A stretch of DNA of 10,193 nucleotides from an uncultured Aquificales bacterium (GTDB taxonomy: Bacteria > Thermosulfidibacterota > Thermosulfidibacteria > Thermosulfidibacterales > Thermosulfidibacteraceae), in assembly GCA_964453345.1 (NCBI GenBank), contig CAYVOC010000021.1:8657-18849 (forward strand), written 5' to 3'. The notes under the pieces were generated by a model, which searched no databases, was not told where the DNA came from, and saw nothing but the letters and a program-made list of their open reading frames with translations. Below are positions 64 to 10,103 of this stretch, one piece after another; the stretch's first letter is position 1, and each line of letters starts with the position of its first letter. A program made the position numbers and the translations under genes.

Positions 64-1575
64 GTGAGATTGCTATTCTCTATTTTACTGTTTTGCTTTC
101 TTTTCTGGAATGCCTATGCTGGGAGGCTGATTCTTCTTACAACCTCTGACCTTCAGGGGCAGGTTGAGCCTGTAAGGGAGAAGGAAGGCAGTTTCGGTGG
201 TTTTGCCCGGATAGCCTGGATCGTAAAGCACTATAAGAAGCATTCCAGAGATCCTGTGTTTGCGGTTGCCACAGGTGACGATTTAATGGGGGAGTATTTC
301 GCCCATTACAAGGGATGTGCCATATACCCCCTCCTTGGGGAGGCCGGTTTTGATGTCGCAACCCTGGGAAACCACGAGTTTGATCAGGGGCCTGAAGTTT
401 TGGCCAAGGCTTTGAGATGCGCTCCTTTCCCGGTTGTGGTCGCCAATCTGAGGCCTACCCGCGAAAGTCCTCTGAAGGGGCTTTTGAAGCCCTATGTGGT
501 TTTGGAGCGCAAGGGTTTGAAGGTGGGCTTCTTTGGCCTCATAACGCCTGATCTTCCGAGTATCTCAAGACTTGAGAATGCCGCTGAGGTGGAGAAGGAT
601 CTGGTTTCTGTTGCCAGAAAGATGGCCGAGCTTCTCAGGAGAAAAGAAAAGGTTGATGTTGTGGTTGCCCTCACCCACATAGGGCTTGAACTTGATAAGC
701 TGTTGGCTGAAAAGGTTCCCGGGATCGATGTTATTTGCGGTGCCCATTCCCACGATCTGCTCAAAACTCCCTATGTTGTAAGGCATCCCGATGGGAGAAA
801 GACCGTTGTGATCCAGACAGGAACGAGGGGAAGGTTTTTGGGGGTCTTGAAGCTTGATGTGGACGGAGGGGTGAAAAGGGTTGAATGGGTTCTCGTCAGG
901 GTTGATTCAAGCATCGGGGAGGATGGGAGGGTTTCTGCCCTGATTGAGCGGTTCAAGAAGGGCCTGCCCAAGGCGAGGGTTATTGCGAAAACAGAGGTTC
1001 CCATCGACCTGCGCTCGGAGTTTCTGAGGAGAAATGAGGCTCCCATAGGCGATTTTGTGGCCGACCTTGTGAGAAAACGATTTAAGGTTGATATTGTTCT
1101 TCTCAATAGCGGCGGTTTCAGGGGAGACAGGATCATTCCCAAGGGGCCCATTACAAACAAGGATATTGCTTCGATCTTCCCCTTCGGTAATACCATTGTG
1201 ATCCTTAAACTGAAGGGAAAGGTGGTTAAGGAGGCTCTTGAGAGGGGAGTCTCGGCCTATCCGACACCGGCTGGATTCTTCCTGCAGGTTTCAGGGATAA
1301 GGATGGTTTTTGATCCGAACAGGCCTCCATATCGAAGGATAGTGAGCGTGCAGGTCTGCAACGACAGCGGATGCGCTCCCCTTGAGGATGAGAAGATCTA
1401 CAGAGTGGCCGTCAACTCCTTTATGGCTTCCGGCGGCGATGGTTACACCATGCTGGCGCGGTTTGTTGACAGAAAAGACACCTACGTGACTTTGAGGAGC
1501 TTTGTGGAATCGGCTGTTTCCGAGCTGAAGATTATAGCCCCTGCTGTTGACGGCAGGATAAAGTCCCTTCAGTAG
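64..1575 (+). CDS. Secreted bifunctional metallophosphatase / 5'-nucleotidase (UshA/CD73 family)
   Basis: GGAGG at 52-56 before a GTG start. Sec signal peptide MRLLFSILLFCFLFWNAYA. Calcineurin-like motifs SDLQG, TGD, GNHEFD, LTH, GAHSH. C-terminal nucleotidase-domain motifs NSGGFR, PFGN, FLQVSG, GGDGY. Confidence 0.92.
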   Translation: MRLLFSILLFCFLFWNAYAGRLILLTTSDLQGQVEPVREKEGSFGGFARIAWIVKHYKKHSRDPVFAVATGDDLMGEYFAHYKGCAIYPLLGEAGFDVATLGNHEFDQGPEVLAKALRCAPFPVVVANLRPTRESPLKGLLKPYVVLERKGLKVGFFGLITPDLPSISRLENAAEVEKDLVSVARKMAELLRRKEKVDVVVALTHIGLELDKLLAEKVPGIDVICGAHSHDLLKTPYVVRHPDGRKTVVIQTGTRGRFLGVLKLDVDGGVKRVEWVLVRVDSSIGEDGRVSALIERFKKGLPKARVIAKTEVPIDLRSEFLRRNEAPIGDFVADLVRKRFKVDIVLLNSGGFRGDRIIPKGPITNKDIASIFPFGNTIVILKLKGKVVKEALERGVSAYPTPAGFFLQVSGIRMVFDPNRPPYRRIVSVQVCNDSGCAPLEDEKIYRVAVNSFMASGGDGYTMLARFVDRKDTYVTLRSFVESAVSELKIIAPAVDGRIKSLQ

Positions 1576-1585
1576 CTTTCGGCTC

Positions 1586-1612
1586 TTAAGACCCCACCCC
1601 TTTTGCCGATCT
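1586..1612 (+). promoter_or_regulatory. Putative sigma28 (FliA) promoter of fliD
   Basis: TTAAGACC-N11-GCCGATCT matches the TAAAGTTT-N11-GCCGATAA consensus in spacing and in the GCCGAT core. It lies immediately upstream of the fliD RBS AGGAGG (1621-1626). Confidence 0.75.
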
Positions 1613-1634
1613 ATATCCCCAGGAGGTGATGGGC

Positions 1635-4256
1635 ATGGAGGCCTTGCGCGTTGGTGGACTTGCTTCCGGGATTGACGTCAACGGAATAATCCAGGAGCTG
1701 GTGAAGGCGAGATCCGGCGTTCTGGATCAGCTTAAGGAGAAGGAAGACAGGCTCAAGATAGAGAAGGATGTTTATAAAGAGATCAGCAACATGGTCAACG
1801 ATCTCAAGGATTCCCTTCTGAAGCTCAGGCTTCAGTCAACCTACCTTTCAAAGAAGGTCTATTCTTCAAATGAGGGTGTTATTACGGCTACTGCCTCAAT
1901 TGATGCGGCCTTTGGAACCCACAGGGTAAAGGTTCTTCAGATGGCAACTCCCGCCATGGCCTCTTCCATGTATGCGAGGGCCAGGCTCATTGATGCAGGG
2001 GCCACCGGTATTTCGTCCATATCCGGCAGGCCCGAGGAGACCCTTGAGGGGACCGACAGCATAGAGATCTATCAGGATGCGGATACGGGCAAGTATTTCG
2101 CCGTTGACAGGTTTTCTCTTAAGGGCAAGGGAAGCGTTGATGCCTATAGGGGTTCTGTTGTTGAGGATTCGAGCAACGAGGGCACCATAAAATCCAATGT
2201 GTCCAAGGGAAGCAAAATCTCCTTCACCTACGGTGGAAAGAGCATAACCGCCTATACGGGCATGGATTATACCGCCGGCGCCACTTCCCTTTACGATGTG
2301 GCAGAGGATTTGCAGGATGCCCTGAACGACGCCATAAACCAGGCTATGGGGACCAAGGATAAAACCTATGTGGCCGTCAGAGTTGATGCGAATGTGGGAG
2401 CCGGCAATGACGCTCTGGTTGTATACGATGTTGAGGGGCTGGGTTTGAGCTTTGAGGATGGCGATGCGGTCTCTGCCCTCGGTCTTGACGCCGCCACACA
2501 CTCCACCGCTTCTTACATAGAGTCTCGGGTTTACGCGGATACTTTGGATGATCTTTCCGGAAGGCTCGGGAGGCTCATAAGGGGGGTTAACTTTACTGTT
2601 GGTGATGACGGACTTGCGGAGGGCACTGTTACCATAATAAGGGACGCCACCCTGAACATAAAGATGCCCTCTCCCACCTATGTTTACGGTGGAGCCGGGG
2701 TTTCGACCGGATCCGGGATAAATCTTGACGCCACCCTTGATAAGGCCGGGTTTGCCAAGGCGCCCACTGAGAGCACAAACGGCTATTTCACCATAAACGG
2801 AGTGAAGATAGAGATAGATGACTACACCAAGCTTACGGTGAGGGATCTTCTGGCCAAGATAAACTCTTCGGGTGCCGGTGTCGTTGCGGAGTATGATGCA
2901 GAAAACGACAGGTTCGTTTTGAGAAGCGTAGAGAACGGCGCCGATATAAGGCTTGGCTCCTTTGGCGATACCAGCGATTTTTTGAGCATCGCAAAGCTGA
3001 CGGTGGTTGAGGGGGCTGAGAAGGTTGAGGGAAGCGACGGGGGTAAGATAGATCCCACCGCTCCCCTTTCCCAGACGGGGATGACGGTGACCCCCACCTC
3101 GGGAACCTTCACCATAAACGGCGTCAGCATCTACGTTGATGTGACAAAGGACAGTCTCAACGATCTTATTGAGAAGGTGAACAATTCCGGCGCCGGCGTA
3201 AAGATGGTTTACGATTCCGCCATGGATAAGGTCATAATACTTTCGGATCCCAAGAACGGTGGGACCAACGATGCTTTTATAAAACTCGGCAGTGATAGTG
3301 ATACTAGCAACATTCTATATGCTTTCAATCTCGTGCCCTCAACAGGTTCTGCCTTTGAGGTGGGGAAGAGGGGCAAAGACGCTGTTATTGAGGTTGACGG
3401 CATAACCTACACAAGACCCACCAACACCATAGACGATGTTATAGGCGGGGTTACTCTGAACCTGAACGGGGTTTCCGATAACTATGTCACTTTGAGCATC
3501 AAGCCCGACGAGGACACAATCGTTGATAGATTTGCAGATTTCATAGCCAAATACAATGCGCTTGTTAAAAAACTGAATCCTCCGGAGCTTACCGATCTTG
3601 AAAAGCAGTATCTTGAGCCCCTGAGTGAGGAGGATAAGCAGTCCATGACCGAGGATGAGATAAAGGAGTATGAGAAGAAGCACAAGGAGTATCTCAGCTA
3701 TCAGATAATCAGCAGAAGCCCCGAATTGAGAAGTTTTCTGTCCCAGCTGCGGAGCACTCTGTTTTCCATGGTGGAGGGACTTTCCCCCTACGATGATCTG
3801 ACGGATATAGGCATAACCACCGATTTCTTCGGCACCTATGAATCGCAGCTCAAGGGATACCTTCTCACAGAATCCACGGATAAGGATGAGATAAAGGATC
3901 TGCTCAGGCAGAACGATAGGTTCATGGATGCGGTGAGGAACCACACCTACGACCTTTACAAGCTCATGGCCATAGATTCCGACGGCAAAAAGGGAATTGC
4001 AAGAAGACTGTCTGACGTTGTTGACTCGTATTTCGGGGTTAACGGGGCTGTCTTCACCTACATAAAGCCGGGAGGGTATCTGGACAGGGAGTTGAGGGAT
4101 CTTTACAAGGAGATGAGCAGCCAGCAGCGGATGATAGCAAGCTACGAGGAAGAGCTGTGGCAGAAGTTTTCCATGATGGATCAGATGGTTGCCAGAATGC
4201 AGGCCAACTACCAGTATATGCTGGCTCAGCTTGGGATAAATCCCAATCAAAAATAA
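1635..4256 (+). CDS. fliD: Flagellar filament cap protein FliD (HAP2), long form, about 873 aa
   Basis: N-terminal GLASGID..IIQELV motif. C-terminal GKDAVIEVDGI..TRPTNTIDDVIGGVTLNL and 'YEEELWQKFSMMDQMVARMQ' motifs. Followed by fliS. Start placed at ATG 1635, 8 nt after AGGAGG; the track start at 1626 lies inside the RBS. Confidence 0.95.
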   Translation: MEALRVGGLASGIDVNGIIQELVKARSGVLDQLKEKEDRLKIEKDVYKEISNMVNDLKDSLLKLRLQSTYLSKKVYSSNEGVITATASIDAAFGTHRVKVLQMATPAMASSMYARARLIDAGATGISSISGRPEETLEGTDSIEIYQDADTGKYFAVDRFSLKGKGSVDAYRGSVVEDSSNEGTIKSNVSKGSKISFTYGGKSITAYTGMDYTAGATSLYDVAEDLQDALNDAINQAMGTKDKTYVAVRVDANVGAGNDALVVYDVEGLGLSFEDGDAVSALGLDAATHSTASYIESRVYADTLDDLSGRLGRLIRGVNFTVGDDGLAEGTVTIIRDATLNIKMPSPTYVYGGAGVSTGSGINLDATLDKAGFAKAPTESTNGYFTINGVKIEIDDYTKLTVRDLLAKINSSGAGVVAEYDAENDRFVLRSVENGADIRLGSFGDTSDFLSIAKLTVVEGAEKVEGSDGGKIDPTAPLSQTGMTVTPTSGTFTINGVSIYVDVTKDSLNDLIEKVNNSGAGVKMVYDSAMDKVIILSDPKNGGTNDAFIKLGSDSDTSNILYAFNLVPSTGSAFEVGKRGKDAVIEVDGITYTRPTNTIDDVIGGVTLNLNGVSDNYVTLSIKPDEDTIVDRFADFIAKYNALVKKLNPPELTDLEKQYLEPLSEEDKQSMTEDEIKEYEKKHKEYLSYQIISRSPELRSFLSQLRSTLFSMVEGLSPYDDLTDIGITTDFFGTYESQLKGYLLTESTDKDEIKDLLRQNDRFMDAVRNHTYDLYKLMAIDSDGKKGIARRLSDVVDSYFGVNGAVFTYIKPGGYLDRELRDLYKEMSSQQRMIASYEEELWQKFSMMDQMVARMQANYQYMLAQLGINPNQK
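2787..3121 (+). repeat. Anchors of an internal tandem domain duplication in fliD (107-codon period)
   Basis: Exact 14-mer TTCACCATAAACGG at 2787-2800 and 3108-3121. Protein copies G.FTINGV.I...N.SGAGV...YD...D...L. Confidence 0.8.
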
Positions 4257-4275
4257 ACCCAGGGAGGGGTGAGAG

Positions 4276-4728
4276 ATGACGGCTAATCCCTACATGAGCT
4301 ACCAGAGGAACCACGTTGAGACGGCGGACAGGGGGACCCTTCTTCTGCTCCTCTACGATGGGGCGGTCAGGTTTATGAGGGAGGCCCGTTCCTATATGGA
4401 GAGGGAGGAGTTTTCCAAGGCCTTTGTCGCCCTTGCGAGGGTGGACAGGATCGTGAGGGAGCTTGTCGCCAGCCTGGATATGGAGAAGGGAGGGGAGATA
4501 GCGGTCAACCTTTACAGGCTCTATGAGTTTGTTCTGTGGAAGGTCTTTCTGGCTGAGAAGGAGAAGGAGGTTTCCCATCTGGATGAGGCTCTGCACATAA
4601 TAGATGAGCTGAGGATGGCCTGGAAGGAGGCTATTGAGAAGGAGAAGCAAAAGGAGGCGCAGCCTAAGAAGGATAGGGTCTCTTCCAAGTCTTCCGAAGA
4701 GAAGCCTTCTGTGAGTATAGTGGGCTGA
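4276..4728 (+). CDS. fliS: Flagellin export chaperone FliS
   Basis: NPY..YQ...VETA..G.LLLLLYDGA, I+.EL..SLDME.GGEIA.NL..LY and ELR.AW motifs. Directly downstream of fliD, with a GGAGG RBS. Confidence 0.96.
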   Translation: MTANPYMSYQRNHVETADRGTLLLLLYDGAVRFMREARSYMEREEFSKAFVALARVDRIVRELVASLDMEKGGEIAVNLYRLYEFVLWKVFLAEKEKEVSHLDEALHIIDELRMAWKEAIEKEKQKEAQPKKDRVSSKSSEEKPSVSIVG

Positions 4729-4749
4729 TGAAATTAAGGGGGTGTGGCC

Positions 4750-5046
4750 ATGATTATAGAGGGTGGAGGTTTTCCCATAAGGGATAAGTTGCTCAAGCTG
4801 GTTGAGGAACCTTCAAAGTCCAAAAAGAACGGCAAAGCCAAGCAGTCTTCTCGGGACTCTGCAAAATCGGATGTTTTGGAGATAACGGCCGAGAATGTGA
4901 GGGCTTCAAGGGCCAAGGTGAAGGACTTTGATCAGGCGGTGGAGCTGCTCAACAGGACCACGAGGCTGATTTCCAGAGACGGGGATATTTCAAGTGTCCA
5001 TTCCGGTTCCATAAGCAGTTCCCTGATAAAGATTATAGTTTCGTAG
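4750..5046 (+). CDS. Small hypothetical protein (98 aa) with a flagellin C-terminal (D0)-like tail
   Basis: AGGGGGTG RBS-like sequence before ATG 4750. Lys/Ser-rich N-half, then ENVRASRAKVKDFDQAVELLN, resembling the flagellin 'ENL.AA.SRI.D.D.A.E...' consensus. Confidence 0.7.
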   Translation: MIIEGGGFPIRDKLLKLVEEPSKSKKNGKAKQSSRDSAKSDVLEITAENVRASRAKVKDFDQAVELLNRTTRLISRDGDISSVHSGSISSSLIKIIVS

Positions 5047-5059
5047 GGAGGTGTGAGCC

Positions 5060-5239
5060 ATGGATGTTCTGGCCACAACTGGTGTGTCCGATTACCTTGC
5101 CCTGAAGCAGTTGAACCTTAAGGCGCAGGTCAATGTCAGGGTTTTGAAGAGCGCCGATGATGTGGCAAGGCAGCAGGCCCAGCAGCTTCTGGAGTTGCTT
5201 GAACCGGGCAAGGGGGCTAATATAAATATAAGGGCATGA
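5060..5239 (+). CDS. YjfB-family putative motility protein (59 aa; not in the ORF track)
   Basis: GGGAGG RBS, then my translation MDVLATTGVSDYLALKQLNLKAQVNVRVLKSADDVARQQAQQLLELLEPGKGANINIRA*. It fits the YjfB pattern V.VLK.A.D...Q.A.QLL......G.NI(D/N)I.A. The stop overlaps the acyP start (ATGA). Confidence 0.82.
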   Translation: MDVLATTGVSDYLALKQLNLKAQVNVRVLKSADDVARQQAQQLLELLEPGKGANINIRA

Positions 5240-5508
5240 AGAGAGCGCACATCTGGGTGAGCGGCAGGGTTCAGGGGGTCTTTTACAGGGCCACCGCAAA
5301 GGAGGTGGCGGATAGGTTGCGCCTTACGGGGTGGGTGAGGAATCTGCCCGACGGGCGCGTTGAGGCGGTTGTGGAGGGTCCGGAGGATGCTGTCAAGGCT
5401 TTTATAGACTGGTGCTGGGAAGGCCCGCCACTTGCGAGAGTTGAGGATGTTGAGGTTGTCTGGGAAGATCCCACCGGTGAGTTTTCTGGTTTCAAGATCA
5501 GGTATTAG
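5236..5508 (+). CDS. acyP: Acylphosphatase
   Basis: Signature VSGRVQGVFYR and GWVRNLPDGRVE with catalytic Arg and Asn, plus GPP.ARV; 90 aa. Confidence 0.96.
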   Translation: MKRAHIWVSGRVQGVFYRATAKEVADRLRLTGWVRNLPDGRVEAVVEGPEDAVKAFIDWCWEGPPLARVEDVEVVWEDPTGEFSGFKIRY

Positions 5509-5552
5509 TTCCCTGCCCTTGATTTCCCTCCGGAACTTTAAGGGAGTGCGCT

Positions 5553-6881
5553 ATGCGTAAGTTCAGTATCCCCCTCAGCGTGTATCCCATTATCGGGGTT
5601 GTTCTTGCCCTTGGGGCCCCTGCGGGCTGGTCGGTGATAGAGAGGATGTTCAATTTCACCTGCCCTGCACCTTACAGAACGCTGCTCTACATATACATGA
5701 CCCTGGGCACCGCCTTGGCCTTCGGCTGCTTTGCGGGCTTTGTGGTATCAAGGCTGGAGAGGGAGAGCCGCCTGACCTATGAGTTGCAGATCTCAAAGGC
5801 GGAGATTGAAAGGCAAAAGGAGAAAACCAGGGCTGATATGGAATCTCTGAGAGAGAAGATGCTTAAGATAAGTCAGCTTGGGGCGAGGGTTACCAAGGCG
5901 ACCGAGGAGGACGAGCTTTACTACAGGCTTGCCTACGCTGTGCAGGTGGCGCTGGACTTTGACAGGGTGCTGATCTTTAAAAACACCCGCAAAGGGCTTG
6001 TCATAACCGAGGCGAGGGGCGTCAAGGCGGATTCAAAGGAGGAGCTGAGGAAGCTTGAGGAGCTTGTGATTCCCTGCAGCATGGATGCAGGTGCAATAGG
6101 CATAGCCTGTTCTGAGGCAAGATCCCTTATCTTTGGGACAAACGACTACATACCTCCCAAATACAGGCTCAAGCCTCCCTACAGCGAGATCGAAGCCATA
6201 AGATCGCGATCCTTCATAGTTGTGCCGGTCAAGATAGAGGGAGAGGATAAGGCGAGGGCTGTTATTGCCGCCGACAGAAAGTATAGAAGGCTTGATGTAA
6301 ACCACTACGATCTTGTGGCCCTGGAGATTCTTGCCGATATGGCTGCAACGACCCTTGCGAGATTGGAGATGGAGAGGGAGCTGGAGGTGCTTGCAAGGGT
6401 TGACGGTCTCACCGGTCTTCTGAACAGACACACATGGATGAAGGAGGCTGAGAAGGAGTTTGAGAGGGCAAAAAGATATAAGGTTCCCTTTGCCGTTGTG
6501 ATGCTTGATGTGGACGATTTTAAATCTGTTAACGACAACTGGGGACACCTTGCAGGGGATATAGTGCTGAGGAAGATAGGCAAGATACTGCGTGAGGAGT
6601 GCAGGAGCGTTGATGTTCCGGGCAGATACGGGGGCGAGGAGTTTGTGGTGCTTCTTCCCCATACGGATATGGAAGGGGCCGTGAGCTTTGCCGAAAGAAT
6701 AAGGAAGAGGATAGAGCAGGAGGATATGAAGATCCCCCGAACCGTCACCGCGACCTTTGGGGTGGCCGTCTTTGATCCTGAAAATCCGGTGGATAGCCTG
6801 GATCAGCTGCTCATCAAGGCGGACAAGGCCCTGTATAAGGGGAAGGATATGGGCAAAAATGTGGTGGTGAGGGCGGAGTAG
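5553..6881 (+). CDS. Membrane-anchored sensor diguanylate cyclase (2 TM - coiled coil - GAF-like - GGDEF)
   Basis: Two hydrophobic N-terminal segments. GAF-like 'RSFIVVPV...VIAAD'. DGLTGLLN, DVDDFK.VND.WGH.AGD, RYGGEEF with RSVD I-site, and ADKALY..K..GKN. Confidence 0.93.
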   Translation: MRKFSIPLSVYPIIGVVLALGAPAGWSVIERMFNFTCPAPYRTLLYIYMTLGTALAFGCFAGFVVSRLERESRLTYELQISKAEIERQKEKTRADMESLREKMLKISQLGARVTKATEEDELYYRLAYAVQVALDFDRVLIFKNTRKGLVITEARGVKADSKEELRKLEELVIPCSMDAGAIGIACSEARSLIFGTNDYIPPKYRLKPPYSEIEAIRSRSFIVVPVKIEGEDKARAVIAADRKYRRLDVNHYDLVALEILADMAATTLARLEMERELEVLARVDGLTGLLNRHTWMKEAEKEFERAKRYKVPFAVVMLDVDDFKSVNDNWGHLAGDIVLRKIGKILREECRSVDVPGRYGGEEFVVLLPHTDMEGAVSFAERIRKRIEQEDMKIPRTVTATFGVAVFDPENPVDSLDQLLIKADKALYKGKDMGKNVVVRAE

Positions 6882-6889
6882 CTCCCCGC

Positions 6890-8233
6890 CTATTGCAGCA
6901 TAAACAGCACCTTCTGCGCCCTCACGGCGGCCTCGGGGCTGTTGAAGATGGGGTGGATCTTCTTTGATTTCAGCCTCGCCACGTATTCCCTTTCGCCGCT
7001 TATGTAGGCGGTGATGGGCTTGTTGTATTTTCTGGTTATCTCGGAAAGCCTCTTCAACAGCATTTCTGCCTGCTCCCACTCGTGGTGGAAGAAGGGGCTT
7101 GCAAAGACTATTCCGTGGAAAAGCTCGTTTTGCGCAATTTTTTCCACTATGTCGGCGTAGGACAGAATGTCGAACACATCGCCCAAGTCAAGGGGATTTG
7201 TGGGCCTTATAACCCTCGCCCTGCTCTTTGAAAGCACAAAAGAGGTGATCTCCTCCGGGTAGTCGGGAAGGTTGAATCCGTTAAGACCTGCGGCGTCCGC
7301 AAGGATAACCCCCTCCCCGCCCGATCTGGAGACTATGGCAAGATTCTTCCCTTTAAGGGGCGGAAGCTGCAGCGCCTTTGCGGCAAGGATAAGCTCATCG
7401 GTTGTGTGCACCCTGAGCTTTTTCGCCTGCTTTATTGCGGCGCTGACTATCTCCTCCTTTGAGGCCAAGGATGCGGTGTGGAACTGGGCTATTCTTCTTG
7501 AGGCCTCCGTCACATTTGCCTTGTGCACCACCACGGGCTTGGGGCATTTTTGTAGCGCTTCGAAGAAGCCCCTTCCGTCTTTGATGCTCTCAAGGTAAAC
7601 CAGAATCACCTTGGTTTCGGGGTCCCGGCTTAAGAAATCTATGTAGTGGCTTTCGTTCAGGATCATCTTGTTTCCTATGCTCACCACCTTGCTCAGCCCT
7701 ATCCCCTCTTCGGCCAAGGCGCTTGCGTAGCCTGTGGCCACCCCGCCGCTTTGGGCGACCACCGCAACGCCCCCCGGTTTAAAGGTCTCAGGACTCAGGG
7801 CCACAAAGGGAGCCACAAAGCCCGTGTTGAAGTTCATGATGCCGAGACAATTAGGACCCACGATGAGAAGGCCGTGCTTTTTGGCGTATTCCTCTATGGC
7901 CTTTTCCATCCTTTTCCCTTCATCGCCGTATTCGGAAAAGCCGCCTGTGTAGATGATGAACCGTTTAACACCCCTTTCGTGAAGGGATTTGACCCTATCA
8001 AACACGGCCGGTGCGGGAATCAGAAGGCAGGCAACGTCTATTCCCTCCGGAAGCTCCGACACATCTGTTCTTATGGGGTGTCCCATGAGATACCCCTTTC
8101 TTCTTCCCAGAAGGTATATGGCACCCTTAAAGCCAAAGGAGACAAGGTTTAAAAGGATGAACCTTGCAAGATTGTCCTCTGAAGTGGATGCCCCGGCTAT
8201 CACCACGCTTTCGGGATTGAAGAGCCTTTCCAT
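6890..8233 (-). CDS. NDP-forming acyl-CoA synthetase (acetate--CoA ligase family), alpha/CoA-binding subunit
   Basis: LFNP.SV.I.GAS, GF.E, GPNCLG, QSGG, S.GN, YLE, putative phospho-His in QFHTASLA (codon 7478-7480), SGG, NPLDL. AGGAGG RBS on the minus strand at 8240-8245. Confidence 0.9.
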   Translation of the reverse strand: MERLFNPESVVIAGASTSEDNLARFILLNLVSFGFKGAIYLLGRRKGYLMGHPIRTDVSELPEGIDVACLLIPAPAVFDRVKSLHERGVKRFIIYTGGFSEYGDEGKRMEKAIEEYAKKHGLLIVGPNCLGIMNFNTGFVAPFVALSPETFKPGGVAVVAQSGGVATGYASALAEEGIGLSKVVSIGNKMILNESHYIDFLSRDPETKVILVYLESIKDGRGFFEALQKCPKPVVVHKANVTEASRRIAQFHTASLASKEEIVSAAIKQAKKLRVHTTDELILAAKALQLPPLKGKNLAIVSRSGGEGVILADAAGLNGFNLPDYPEEITSFVLSKSRARVIRPTNPLDLGDVFDILSYADIVEKIAQNELFHGIVFASPFFHHEWEQAEMLLKRLSEITRKYNKPITAYISGEREYVARLKSKKIHPIFNSPEAAVRAQKVLFMLQ

Positions 8234-8248
8234 GGACGCCCTCCTGTG

Positions 8249-8277
8249 TTGATAAGCAAAAACCTATTTGATAAACT
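8249..8277 (+). promoter_or_regulatory. Putative sigma70 promoter for the beta-subunit gene and downstream MNT/HEPN genes
   Basis: TTGATA (8249-8254) - 17 nt - TAAACT (8272-8277). Confidence 0.62.
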
Positions 8278-8289
8278 CAAACTTGTCAA
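8261..8289 (-). promoter_or_regulatory. Putative sigma70 promoter for the alpha-subunit gene
   Basis: Minus strand TTGACA (8289-8284) - 17 nt - TAGGTT (8266-8261). Confidence 0.7.
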
Positions 8290-8309
8290 TAAACCGCGCG
8301 GGGTGGATT

Positions 8310-8960
8310 ATGGCGACATCCGTCTTTCTGGGCGAGCTTGAGGCAAAAAGACTTCTTGCGGAAGAGGGCTTTTCCGTCAGCATGCCCTATGAGGTTAAGA
8401 GCCTTGATGAGGCCCTGGATGTGGCATCAAGGATAGGGTATCCCGTGGTGCTGAAGGTGGCCTCCAGCAAAATCGTTCACAAAAGCGATGTGGGCGGGGT
8501 CATCACAGGGATAGACTCGGCCGAGAAGCTGAAAGAAGTCTTTGATCCCTTCTTGAAGAGGATGAGGGAGATCGATCCCGAGGCTTCAGCCACCATCCAG
8601 AAGCAGTATCCTCCCTCTGTGGAGCTTGTGGTGGGCGTCTTTGAGGACGAGCTTTTCGGAAAGGTTATGATGTTCGGGCTTGGCGGGATACTCGTGGAGG
8701 TTCTCAAGGATGTTTCCTTCAGGCTCATTCCCATCACCGAAGCGGATGCGCTGGAGATGATGGACGAGCTGAAGGGCTCAAGGATCCTTGACGGGGTGAG
8801 AGGATACCCGAAGGTGGACAGAAATGCGCTTTCCAGGTTTCTGGTCAAGGTTTCGGAGTTTGCCGAAAAACATAACGTCACCCAGATGGATCTCAACCCG
8901 GTTTTCGCCTCGGGGGATGAGTTCATAATAGTGGATGCAAGAATGGAAGTGTGCAAATGA
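8310..8960 (+). CDS. NDP-forming acyl-CoA synthetase beta subunit (stand-alone ATP-grasp)
   Basis: E.EAK.LL, IGYPVVLK, HKSDVGGV, EL+VG..D..FG.V+MFGLGG+.VE+.KDVSFR, DLNP and VDAR motifs. Start placed at ATG 8310 after GGGGTG; the track's TTG 8268 falls within the promoter region. Confidence 0.92.
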   Translation: MATSVFLGELEAKRLLAEEGFSVSMPYEVKSLDEALDVASRIGYPVVLKVASSKIVHKSDVGGVITGIDSAEKLKEVFDPFLKRMREIDPEASATIQKQYPPSVELVVGVFEDELFGKVMMFGLGGILVEVLKDVSFRLIPITEADALEMMDELKGSRILDGVRGYPKVDRNALSRFLVKVSEFAEKHNVTQMDLNPVFASGDEFIIVDARMEVCK

Positions 8961-9277
8961 TAAGGGTGAGGCCCTTGAGTGATGAGGAGATTCTGTCTGA
9001 GGTTGTTTCTGTAATCAGCCGCTATTTGCCTGAGGCCACCGTTTATCTTTTTGGCTCAAGGGCCTCCGGAAGGGCTAAGGAAAACTCTGATTTCGACATA
9101 GCGATAGAGTGGAAGGAAAAGATACCACTTTCCACCATCTCCAGAATAAGGGAGAAGCTGGAGGATCTTCCCACATTGAAAAGCTTTGATATAGTTGATC
9201 TTAAAAGGTGCTCCGAGGAGTTTGTGCGCTCTGTGAAGGAGAGGGGAGTGGTTCTTTATGACGGAAAAAGAGCTTGA
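8957..9277 (+). CDS. Minimal nucleotidyltransferase (MNT, pol-beta superfamily; HI0073/MntA-like antitoxin)
   Basis: YLFGSRASGRAKENSDFDIAI (GS-x10-DxD), distal DIVD, terminal GVVLY. ATGA overlap with the beta-subunit stop. Confidence 0.9.
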   Translation: MIRVRPLSDEEILSEVVSVISRYLPEATVYLFGSRASGRAKENSDFDIAIEWKEKIPLSTISRIREKLEDLPTLKSFDIVDLKRCSEEFVRSVKERGVVLYDGKRA

Positions 9278-9404
9278 GGGTATGCTTTCAACCCTTGAAA
9301 GGGCCTACGGGCGGTTGAAGGAGGCTCTGCTCGTTGATCCCGAAGAGAATGAGCTGGCGATTGATGCAACCATTCAGAGATTTGAGTTTTTAGGAGCGGC
9401 CTGA
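9258..9404 (+). pseudogene. Truncated HI0074-type HEPN / nucleotidyltransferase substrate-binding subunit (48-aa remnant)
   Basis: GGGGAG upstream of ATG 9258. My translation MTEKELEGMLSTLERAYGRLKEALLVDPEENELAIDATIQRFEFLGAA*. D..IQRFEF is the family hallmark, normally continuing T.EL.WK and later an Rx4H motif in a protein more than twice as long. Confidence 0.85.
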
Positions 9405-9406
9405 AC

Positions 9407-9826
9407 ATGAACCGTGCGCTGGACTGGCTGAGGCAGGCCGAAAGGGACCTGGACAAGGCCAAAAACGATCTTGAGGCAGGCTTTTATGAATGGGCCTGTT
9501 TTGCCTGTCAGCAGGCTGCTGAAAAGGCGGTAAAGGCCCTGGGGATGCGGTATGGGCTGGATGTCTGGGGACATTCTGTAAGGGAGCTTCTGGAACTGGT
9601 GAGCAAGCACTGTAGCCTTGATGTGCCCCCTGAGGTTGCAAAATGGGCCAGAAAGCTGGACAGAATGTATATACCCACACGCTATCCAAACGGGCTTCCG
9701 GCGGGTGCCCCCTTTGAGCATTATGACGCTTCGGATGCCGAGGAGGCGATCCTTGCGGCGGAGAATATCATCAGGTTCTGCAAGAGCAATCTTCCTGGAG
9801 AAGGACAGGCTGATAAGGGTTATTGA
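9407..9826 (+). CDS. HEPN domain protein (classical COG2250-like type)
   Basis: AGGAG RBS at 9392-9396. Motifs WL.QAE.DL..A, Y.WACF..QQAAEKA+KA, GHS+..LL, LD..YIP.RYP and DAEEA. Confidence 0.92.
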   Translation: MNRALDWLRQAERDLDKAKNDLEAGFYEWACFACQQAAEKAVKALGMRYGLDVWGHSVRELLELVSKHCSLDVPPEVAKWARKLDRMYIPTRYPNGLPAGAPFEHYDASDAEEAILAAENIIRFCKSNLPGEGQADKGY

Positions 9827-10103
9827 AGGGGCTTCTGCCGAGTTGAAAGCCGCTTTCCCTTATGTAAAGGCTGTTTTTCTCTTCGGCTCTTTGGTCAGGG
9901 GAGATTTCAGGGGAACGAGTGATGCAGACATTTTGGTCGTTGTCTCTCATAAGCTTACAAAGGACAACTTTTTAAAAATCCGCAACGAAATCTACGATTT
10001 TCTGGCGGAAAGGATCCCAATTGGTTTCGACCTTCTTGTCTGGGACGAAGAGATGTTTATGAATTTGAAGGACAAATACTCCCCCATGCTGAAGCTGGCG
10101 TAA
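9753..10103 (+). CDS. Second minimal nucleotidyltransferase (MNT), partner of the upstream HEPN
   Basis: FLFGSLVRGDFRGTSDADILVV (GS-x10-DxD), distal FDLLV. Start inferred at TTG 9753, 6 nt after AGGAGG (9741-9746); the exact start is less certain than the product. Confidence 0.85.
   Translation: MRRRISSGSARAIFLEKDRLIRVIEGASAELKAAFPYVKAVFLFGSLVRGDFRGTSDADILVVVSHKLTKDNFLKIRNEIYDFLAERIPIGFDLLVWDEEMFMNLKDKYSPMLKLA

Follow-up and report, generated by a model that had tools for sequence, protein, structure and literature searches.

A mini-protein resembling the C-terminal tail of flagellin is encoded behind fliS in several bacterial phyla

Flagellin is among the most abundant proteins of motile cells, and its supply is controlled by FliS at the level of export and by the FliW-CsrA pair at the level of translation. 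In the window analysed here, a stretch of 10,193 nucleotides (nt) from contig CAYVOC010000021.1 of an uncultured Aquificales bacterium (GCA_964453345.1), the fliS gene is directly followed by an open reading frame (ORF) of 98 amino acids (aa) at 4750..5046 on the plus strand, and the question raised by this locus is what so small a protein does beside a flagellin chaperone. An initial annotation, made from the letters alone, had proposed a stand-alone flagellin tail that titrates FliS, docks at the export gate or terminates filament growth. We find that the ORF is a real gene founding an unnamed family of ~80-120-aa proteins, and on balance we think it somewhat probable that its product is a flagellin surrogate unable to polymerise, which fills the FliS groove meant for the flagellin tail and serves as an accessory regulator of flagellin delivery. 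A conserved, operon-linked copy of the flagellin end to which chaperone and regulator bind would add a new level of control to flagellin supply. A search of full-text literature, with subscription journals outside its coverage, returned no description of a flagellin-tail mini-protein behind fliS.

The ORF ends with a stop codon at 5044-5046. We placed its start at ATG 4750, because homologues begin with MII or MVI at the same Met; the automatic ORF listing instead gives GTG 4744. A Shine-Dalgarno-like AGGGGGT, read in the sequence at 4737..4743 (plus strand), lies 6 nt ahead of this ATG. The ORF had no Pfam or NCBIfam match at E<=10, and Pfam scans of 10 close and six distant members returned just scattered sub-threshold matches. 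All members follow one layout: an N-terminal motif of their own is joined by a flexible basic linker to a divergent version of flagellin D1-C/D0-C, with no variable domain. In the window, residues 1-20 (4750..4809) carry the family-specific motif MxIEGGGFPIRDKLLKLV, which is conserved in alignments A1, A3 and A5, and residues 19-40 (4804..4869) form the Lys/Ser-rich linker (6 K and 6 S in 22 residues), whose length varies and where the alignment gaps fall. Residues 40-53 (SDVLEITAENVRAS; 4867..4908) are the counterpart of the end of flagellin helix D1-C, and residues 55-97 (4912..5040) that of the D1-C end and the D0-C tail, all on the plus strand. Over 22 diverse members with identity down to ~20%, only M1, N49 (codon 4894-4896), A52 and H84 are invariant, and A63 is kept in >=90%. 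The family also offers a clean natural experiment for telling flagellin residues retained for binding to FliS and FliW from those needed for filament packing: only N49, A52 and H84 survive. The initial annotation had started the last 50 residues at N49 and described a Lys/Ser-rich N-terminal half, and these sequence details were correct throughout, coordinates included.

Sequence comparison shows that the last ~55 residues of the ORF are remotely homologous to the D1/D0 segment at the flagellin C-terminus, with the same end register. In an ungapped alignment anchored at the C-terminal end, the ORF and the flagellin of its own genome (contig C63) share 11 of 53 positions (E48, N49, A52, S53, D59, D61, A63, E65, N68, T70 and I74) at a BLOSUM62 score of 37; among 100,000 shuffles of this comparison, 50 reached the identities and one reached the score. 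The end-aligned register also beat all other ungapped offsets (34, with 4 for the next best). The motif shared with flagellin tails reads E-N-x-x-A-S ... D-x-D-x-A-x-E ... T ... I. The seven positions at which the initial annotation had matched the ORF to the E. coli FliC tail are all among these 11, and the ORF tail is closer to the flagellin of its own genome than to that E. coli tail.

Family profiles were searched against all sequences in the PDB. At E<=10, flagellins accounted for 10 of the 11 matches of profile A1 (10 sequences; best E 9.6e-4), 14 of 16 for A2 (16 sequences; best E 6.3e-4) and 31 of 34 for A5 (22 sequences; best E 9.5e-5). The flagellin matches always fell on the C-terminal ~55 residues, and the profile stopped two residues short of the chain end (284 of 286, 302 of 304, 375 of 377 and 565 of 567). 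Comparison by hhalign with all 18 flagellin tails of the phylum gave P values of 1.6e-4 (A2) and 4.3e-5 (A5); with the seven canonical flagellin tails the values were 9.7e-5 (A2) and 3.2e-6 (A5, probability 88%). A2 scored 28.0, whereas 200 column shuffles averaged 9.7 (standard deviation 1.8) and never exceeded 15.9, and the reversed alignment reached 10.9. When the family hidden Markov model was run against the 17,940 six-frame ORFs of the genome, the best non-self match was the C63 flagellin tail (E 0.038 with A1 and 9.7e-7 with A5). By profile searches, hhalign and shuffles, the tail likeness first noticed by eye exceeds chance.

In the ESM Atlas, the ten best family-bearing matches of the ORF were all Flagellin_C clusters, short ones first, with a top score of 0.94, a score to be read against the 4-10 of 100 shuffled proteins that also reach 0.9. 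Structure matches for the ORF in the Atlas were all under the acceptance bar. Judged by language-model features, the two closest entries (0.94 and 0.92) are Flagellin_C-only clusters from Bacillota that are likewise short (117 and 106 aa); unlike the mini-protein, they have a detectable PF00700 domain in 69% and 81% of their members.

The likeness to flagellin is confined to this tail. We found no Flagellin_N (PF00669) match in the ORF and, by eye, no likeness to two full flagellin N-termini of relatives; on this Pfam scan and by-eye comparison, the initial claim that the flagellin N-terminal helix is missing was borne out. The mini-protein shares with flagellin the ~55-residue profile similarity, the C-terminal end register and the predicted occupancy of FliS by that segment. 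It differs in lying below Pfam detection, in having neither the D0-N/D1-N helices nor the variable domain, in carrying its own N-terminal motif, and in the invariant H84 that replaces the flagellin LAQAN stretch. It could not serve as an ordinary filament subunit.

Two further flagellin classes occur in the phylum, for example on contigs C10 (about 9300-11396) and C2 (41633-42376) of genome G000. In one class, of ~590 aa, the Flagellin_C proteins show a His within the LAQAN stretch and continue past the LLF motif, and the ~250-aa class has a divergent D0 tail. Both paralogues were considered as the closest relative of the mini-protein and rejected, as they score below canonical flagellin. The canonical flagellin of this genome is truncated where contig C63 ends.

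The family profile found a member in 10 of the 18 genomes of the phylum, each directly after fliS. Six of the eight member-less genomes belong to family f3, where neither a member nor flagellin (0/6 each) nor FlgM was found, which marks this family as non-flagellate. The other two (G002 and G006) also yielded no FliS, and their fliS-member locus is probably unassembled. Outside the phylum, a profile search of 1.84 billion representative proteins returned nine at E<=1e-3, and a word-based protein search returned 18 at E<=0.01, of which the few named ones are called hypothetical. The gene order is fliD-fliS-member-63 aa-FliT-like in a Deferribacteraceae metagenome-assembled genome (MAG) and fliD-fliS-member-69 aa in a Thermodesulfobacteriota MAG; in an unclassified MAG, fliS is followed by a FlgN-like gene and then the member. 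In the phylum of the Deferribacteraceae MAG (hereafter the second phylum), 28 of 68 genomes have a member by profile; coordinate comparison with the FliS matches places every one of these on the strand of fliS and no more than about 200 nt downstream of it, and an ORF-level check confirmed a member after fliS at six of six loci. We opened six of the 40 match-less genomes of this phylum: one (G065) had an overlooked member, which brings the count to at least 29 of 68, four had a FliT-like ORF directly after fliS, and one had an unrelated gene there. The four genomes with fliS followed by a FliT-like ORF lead us to regard the family as an accessory gene inserted between fliS and fliT. Some flagellated lineages dispense with it, and it is no universal part of the flagellum.

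The family thus occurs in genomes of the Deferribacterota type, in a small phylum from hydrothermal vents and in one or more Thermodesulfobacteriota MAGs, and the conserved short homologues in synteny with fliS that the initial annotation had looked for were recovered by homologue search in both phyla. Several members of the second phylum lie at megabase coordinates on a first contig, a hint that these genomes are complete, in which case cultured strains may allow the surrogate idea to be tested. Longer fused forms were searched for with A2 and none were found, which is weak evidence. A related-locus search with P0002 likewise returned none. Members from genus g2 are only 82-83 aa long (L059 in G004, 1510-1758; L058 in G007), end a few residues past the conserved His and carry S-N for E-N; FliS is also shorter there (122 aa in G004).

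Binding to FliS, proposed by the initial annotation to run through the tail, is supported by structure prediction. Co-folding of FliS (residues 1-125, 8-row alignment; beyond residue ~125 the FliS of the window continues in a K/S/E-rich tail) with the ORF (12-row alignment) gave an ipSAE interface score of 0.84, compared with 0.11 for the best of three controls. Of 80 solved complexes, 58 attain the acceptance mark, as do 2 of 110 mismatched pairs, counts that are rough here as custom alignments were used. The runs shared >=81% of contacts, with a predicted local distance difference test (pLDDT) value of >=58 for the partner. The predicted interface joins ORF residues 55-97 to FliS residues 19-29, 55-85 and 104-123, and it takes in nine of the ten conserved C-half positions of alignment A3 (F60, A63, L66, L67, T70, I74, V83, H84 and G86). 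The N-terminal motif (residues 1-20) falls outside it, as do E48, N49 and A52. The mini-protein is accordingly predicted, on this model, to bind FliS, and it appears to keep two separable flagellin handles, namely the FliS tail and the Asn segment.

These observations suggest how a flagellin surrogate could act. The mini-protein would be co-produced with FliS from the fliD-fliS operon, and it could not polymerise because the N-terminal D0/D1 helices are missing. Residues ~55-97 would fill the FliS groove that normally takes the flagellin tail, and the FliS-bound surrogate would then compete with, buffer or time the delivery of flagellin by FliS. The segment with the invariant Asn (residues 40-54) would stay free for a second partner, most plausibly FliW. 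Among the other roles initially put forward, termination of the filament found no support.

Several points weigh against such a surrogate. Neither the ORF nor 10 members matched Pfam Flagellin_C (PF00700) at E<=10, and a PF00700 search of the genome hit four other places and not this ORF. The homology to the flagellin tail rests on custom-built family profiles; the tail likeness seen in the initial annotation stands as a remote similarity and not as a Pfam match. The D0-C part is the least flagellin-like, and all 11 identities to the flagellin of the genome lie within residues 48-74; in genus g2 and in P0013, the last ~12 residues are gone, in g2 with loss of the hydrophobic tail end. As structures of FliS-flagellin complexes have been solved, the co-fold result may just restate the likeness to them. 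Some flagellated relatives have FliS and FliW and yet manage without the gene. The AlphaFold2 monomer model (12 sequences) is also poor, with a pLDDT of 56.4 and a predicted template modelling score of 0.24; it has helices at 9-18 (low confidence), 36-53 and 57-77. Such a prediction would fit a protein that, like FlgM and the ends of flagellin, becomes ordered only when bound to a partner.

The closest precedent in print is the FliS co-chaperone HP1076 of H. pylori, which is reported to be flagellin-D1-like, to bind FliS with a Kd of ~15 nM and to compete with flagellin (PMC7248283). With this precedent, the mini-protein would join the flagellin-like non-filament clients of flagellin chaperones. 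HP1076 is described as a folded helical bundle of 171 aa that stacks on FliS helices alpha2-alpha3 and as present in epsilon-proteobacteria only (PMC7248283), whereas the mini-protein is a mostly disordered tail mimic, is predicted to use the D0-C groove and is encoded beside fliS. HP1076 chains were absent from the PDB matches at E<=10 of the three family profiles A1, A2 and A5, though solved structures exist. The HP1076 case also adds to the points against a regulatory surrogate: the hp1076 null mutant is reported to be motile (PMC7248283), so that such a mimic may have a subtle phenotype or none.

The second partner could instead carry the main function. It may be that the mini-protein chiefly binds FliW, as a third ligand beside flagellin and CsrA, and that holding or releasing FliW shifts the CsrA-FliW-flagellin switch that sets flagellin translation, a possibility that we consider serious although rather unlikely. 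This idea starts from the position of the invariant Asn. N49 lies 49 residues before the last residue, and N237 of a 286-aa flagellin is equally spaced; the HMMER alignment puts N49 on N237 of that chain, as counted from its printed coordinates, and by ungapped coordinates (profile 43-99 to 246-302 of the 304-aa chain 5wjv) N49 falls on residue 255. FliW binding is reported to need N237 of flagellin in T. pallidum, N255 in B. subtilis and N287 in B. burgdorferi (PMC12327847), and chain D of 6GOW, equal in length to 5wjv, is given as B. subtilis flagellin (PMC7248283). FliW is further reported to protect flagellin residues 240-260 (PMC6070490), a stretch that corresponds to ORF residues ~34-54. 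An Asn in E-N-x-x-A context is thus present in the mini-protein (N49, A52) at the FliW-dependent flagellin position, and this segment lies outside the predicted FliS interface. The genome also encodes flgL-fliW-csrA, and its CsrA bears E-N-x-x-A at N55, the residue described as a FliW contact in B. subtilis CsrA (bioRxiv 10.1101/2020.07.02.184341). The likeness between the mini-protein and the C-terminal FliW site of CsrA is at the sequence level: both have the motif with its invariant Asn, but just these five residues are shared and the fold context differs. By register, then, N49 and A52, which the initial annotation had not singled out as the most conserved residues, seem to point to FliW/CsrA as much as to FliS.

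Other evidence speaks against FliW as the main partner. FliW is present in 27 of the 28 family-positive genomes of the second phylum and in both distant MAGs tested, but it is found in 60 of the 68 second-phylum genomes regardless of the family, so that co-occurrence is little informative. The mini-protein has no equivalent of the flagellin N-terminal 72 residues, which are reported to suffice for FliW binding in vitro (PMC6070490). Its gene is linked to fliS, not to fliW. The same Asn is presumably present in the E. coli flagellin tail, as given in the initial annotation, and E. coli is not known to have FliW, so that the Asn may instead serve helix packing. Even with FliW as main partner, the mini-protein may still ride FliS, like flagellin in the FliS/flagellin/FliW trimer. 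The surrogate idea can be widened accordingly in two ways. In one, which we think unlikely, a proxy flagellin with both handles would sit in a FliS/proxy/FliW complex, be exported late or kept as a buffer, and set the CsrA-FliW-flagellin threshold in a manner tied to FliS availability; if true, flagellin homeostasis would have a fourth component not seen before, and similar mimics may have arisen independently in several phyla. In the other, which we likewise hold to be doubtful, the mini-protein would also hold FliW and thereby feed the CsrA switch, or would be exported like FlgM as a checkpoint signal.

The position of the gene suggests yet another role, since the slot after fliD-fliS holds fliT in E. 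coli and Bacillus. The mini-protein could be a FliT substitute or adaptor whose tail plugs FliS and whose N-terminal motif holds FliD or another late substrate for escort to FlhA. The genome has no FliT above the cut-off (best 14.6 bits in the profile search, cut-off 29.5), and the conserved N-terminal motif is without an assigned partner. However, the ORF shows no FliT likeness (no PF05400 match), in agreement with the initial statement that it is not FliT. In the second phylum, members also coexist with a downstream FliT-like ORF (L041, FliT E 0.0025, below the cut-off; L074), and the member-less lineages in which fliS is followed by a FliT-like ORF speak for insertion, not replacement. We therefore regard this role as improbable.

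A diverged FlgM-like exported anti-sigma factor is very improbable. The mini-protein resembles FlgM in being small, largely disordered and flagellar, with a basic, disordered N-half and a comparable size, and FlgM, like flagellin, is reported to be bound by FliS in Salmonella (PMC8527033). The initial annotation had compared SDVLEIT (residues 40-46) with FlgM-like exported proteins; as SDVLEI[ST], this short motif is indeed shared with the DRVE[IL]S of local FlgM proteins, but the similarity is not significant. There was no PF04316 match, and hhalign gave P values of 0.19, 0.14 and 0.098 over 20-39 columns, which cover little beyond D-x-V-E-[IL]-[ST]. Flagellin tails win every profile comparison, and the genome has a separate canonical FlgM next to flgK/flgL, as well as FliA (sigma-28). 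FlaG was rejected as an identity as well, since the ORF had no PF03646 match and the FlaG of the genome follows the flagellin gene on C63. On sequence criteria, the mini-protein is none of HP1076, FlgM, FliT and FlaG, nor is it flagellin by the defining tests.

That the ORF is a decayed flagellin fragment or a mis-called frame without function is close to refuted: there is no curated family and just the nine homologues among the 1.84 billion representatives, but the open frame is conserved in >=40 genomes of >=3 lineages at identity down to ~20-30%, begins with a motif foreign to flagellin, keeps its place in the gene order and is preceded by a ribosome-binding site.

The flagellin surrogate that we favour would be produced from a tight block of same-strand genes, namely fliD, fliS, the 98-aa ORF, a yjfB-like gene and an acylphosphatase gene. 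The gaps from fliD to yjfB are 19, 21 and 13 nt, and yjfB and the acylphosphatase gene overlap by 4 nt. The first gene, fliD (1626..4256, plus strand), encodes the filament cap (876 aa; Pfam FliD_N 1.9e-20, FliD_C 8.4e-36), and fliS (4276..4728, plus strand; 150 aa; Pfam FliS 2e-32, TIGR00208 2e-26) begins 19 nt past it. Downstream of the mini-protein gene lie the small yjfB-like gene (5060..5239, plus strand; 59 aa; PF14070 5.7e-9) and the acylphosphatase gene (5236..5508, plus strand; PF00708 1.2e-29), which overlaps the yjfB stop and is the last gene of the conserved block. The yjfB gene follows the mini-protein gene in the f1 loci, except in genus g2, and in f2; in two other lineages this slot holds putative small ORFs. 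Genus g2 keeps the acylphosphatase gene without yjfB, the acylphosphatase being a fixed member of this late flagellar operon.

We scanned 1400-5700 for promoters and terminators, and sites were no commoner than in shuffles; there was no terminator-like site between fliD and the acylphosphatase gene, and one weak promoter-like site fell inside fliS. A sigma-28-like motif (TTAAG-N14-GCCGATCT), matched to the sigma-28 consensus, lies at 1586-1612 upstream of fliD, and FliA is encoded in the genome. We did not rely on this motif as a promoter because it ends just 14 nt before the listed GTG start of fliD; either the promoter call or the fliD start codon is doubtful.

FliD is unusually long, with ~470 residues separating the FliD_N and FliD_C matches; long forms occur elsewhere too (875 aa in the Deferribacteraceae MAG and >=800 aa in the Thermodesulfobacteriota MAG). 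Directly downstream of the flagellar block, 5553-6881 encodes a diguanylate cyclase of GAF-GGDEF type (GGDEF 1.4e-41) that starts with a hydrophobic segment and may link cyclic di-GMP to motility. At 6890-8960, the genes for the two parts of an ADP-forming acyl-CoA synthetase diverge: the minus-strand gene carries CoA_binding and Succ_CoA_lig, the plus-strand gene ATP-grasp_5. Genes for a nucleotidyltransferase (Polbeta), a HEPN protein and a second nucleotidyltransferase follow in series at 8951-10103, partly overlapping, and likely form a HEPN/MNT toxin-antitoxin-type module. Near-identical DNA to 4200-5600 of the window (0.59-0.82 of sampled words) was found, besides the possible source run, in seven further runs from four studies, all of them DNA and not RNA runs, and three of these runs are labelled hydrothermal vent metagenome.

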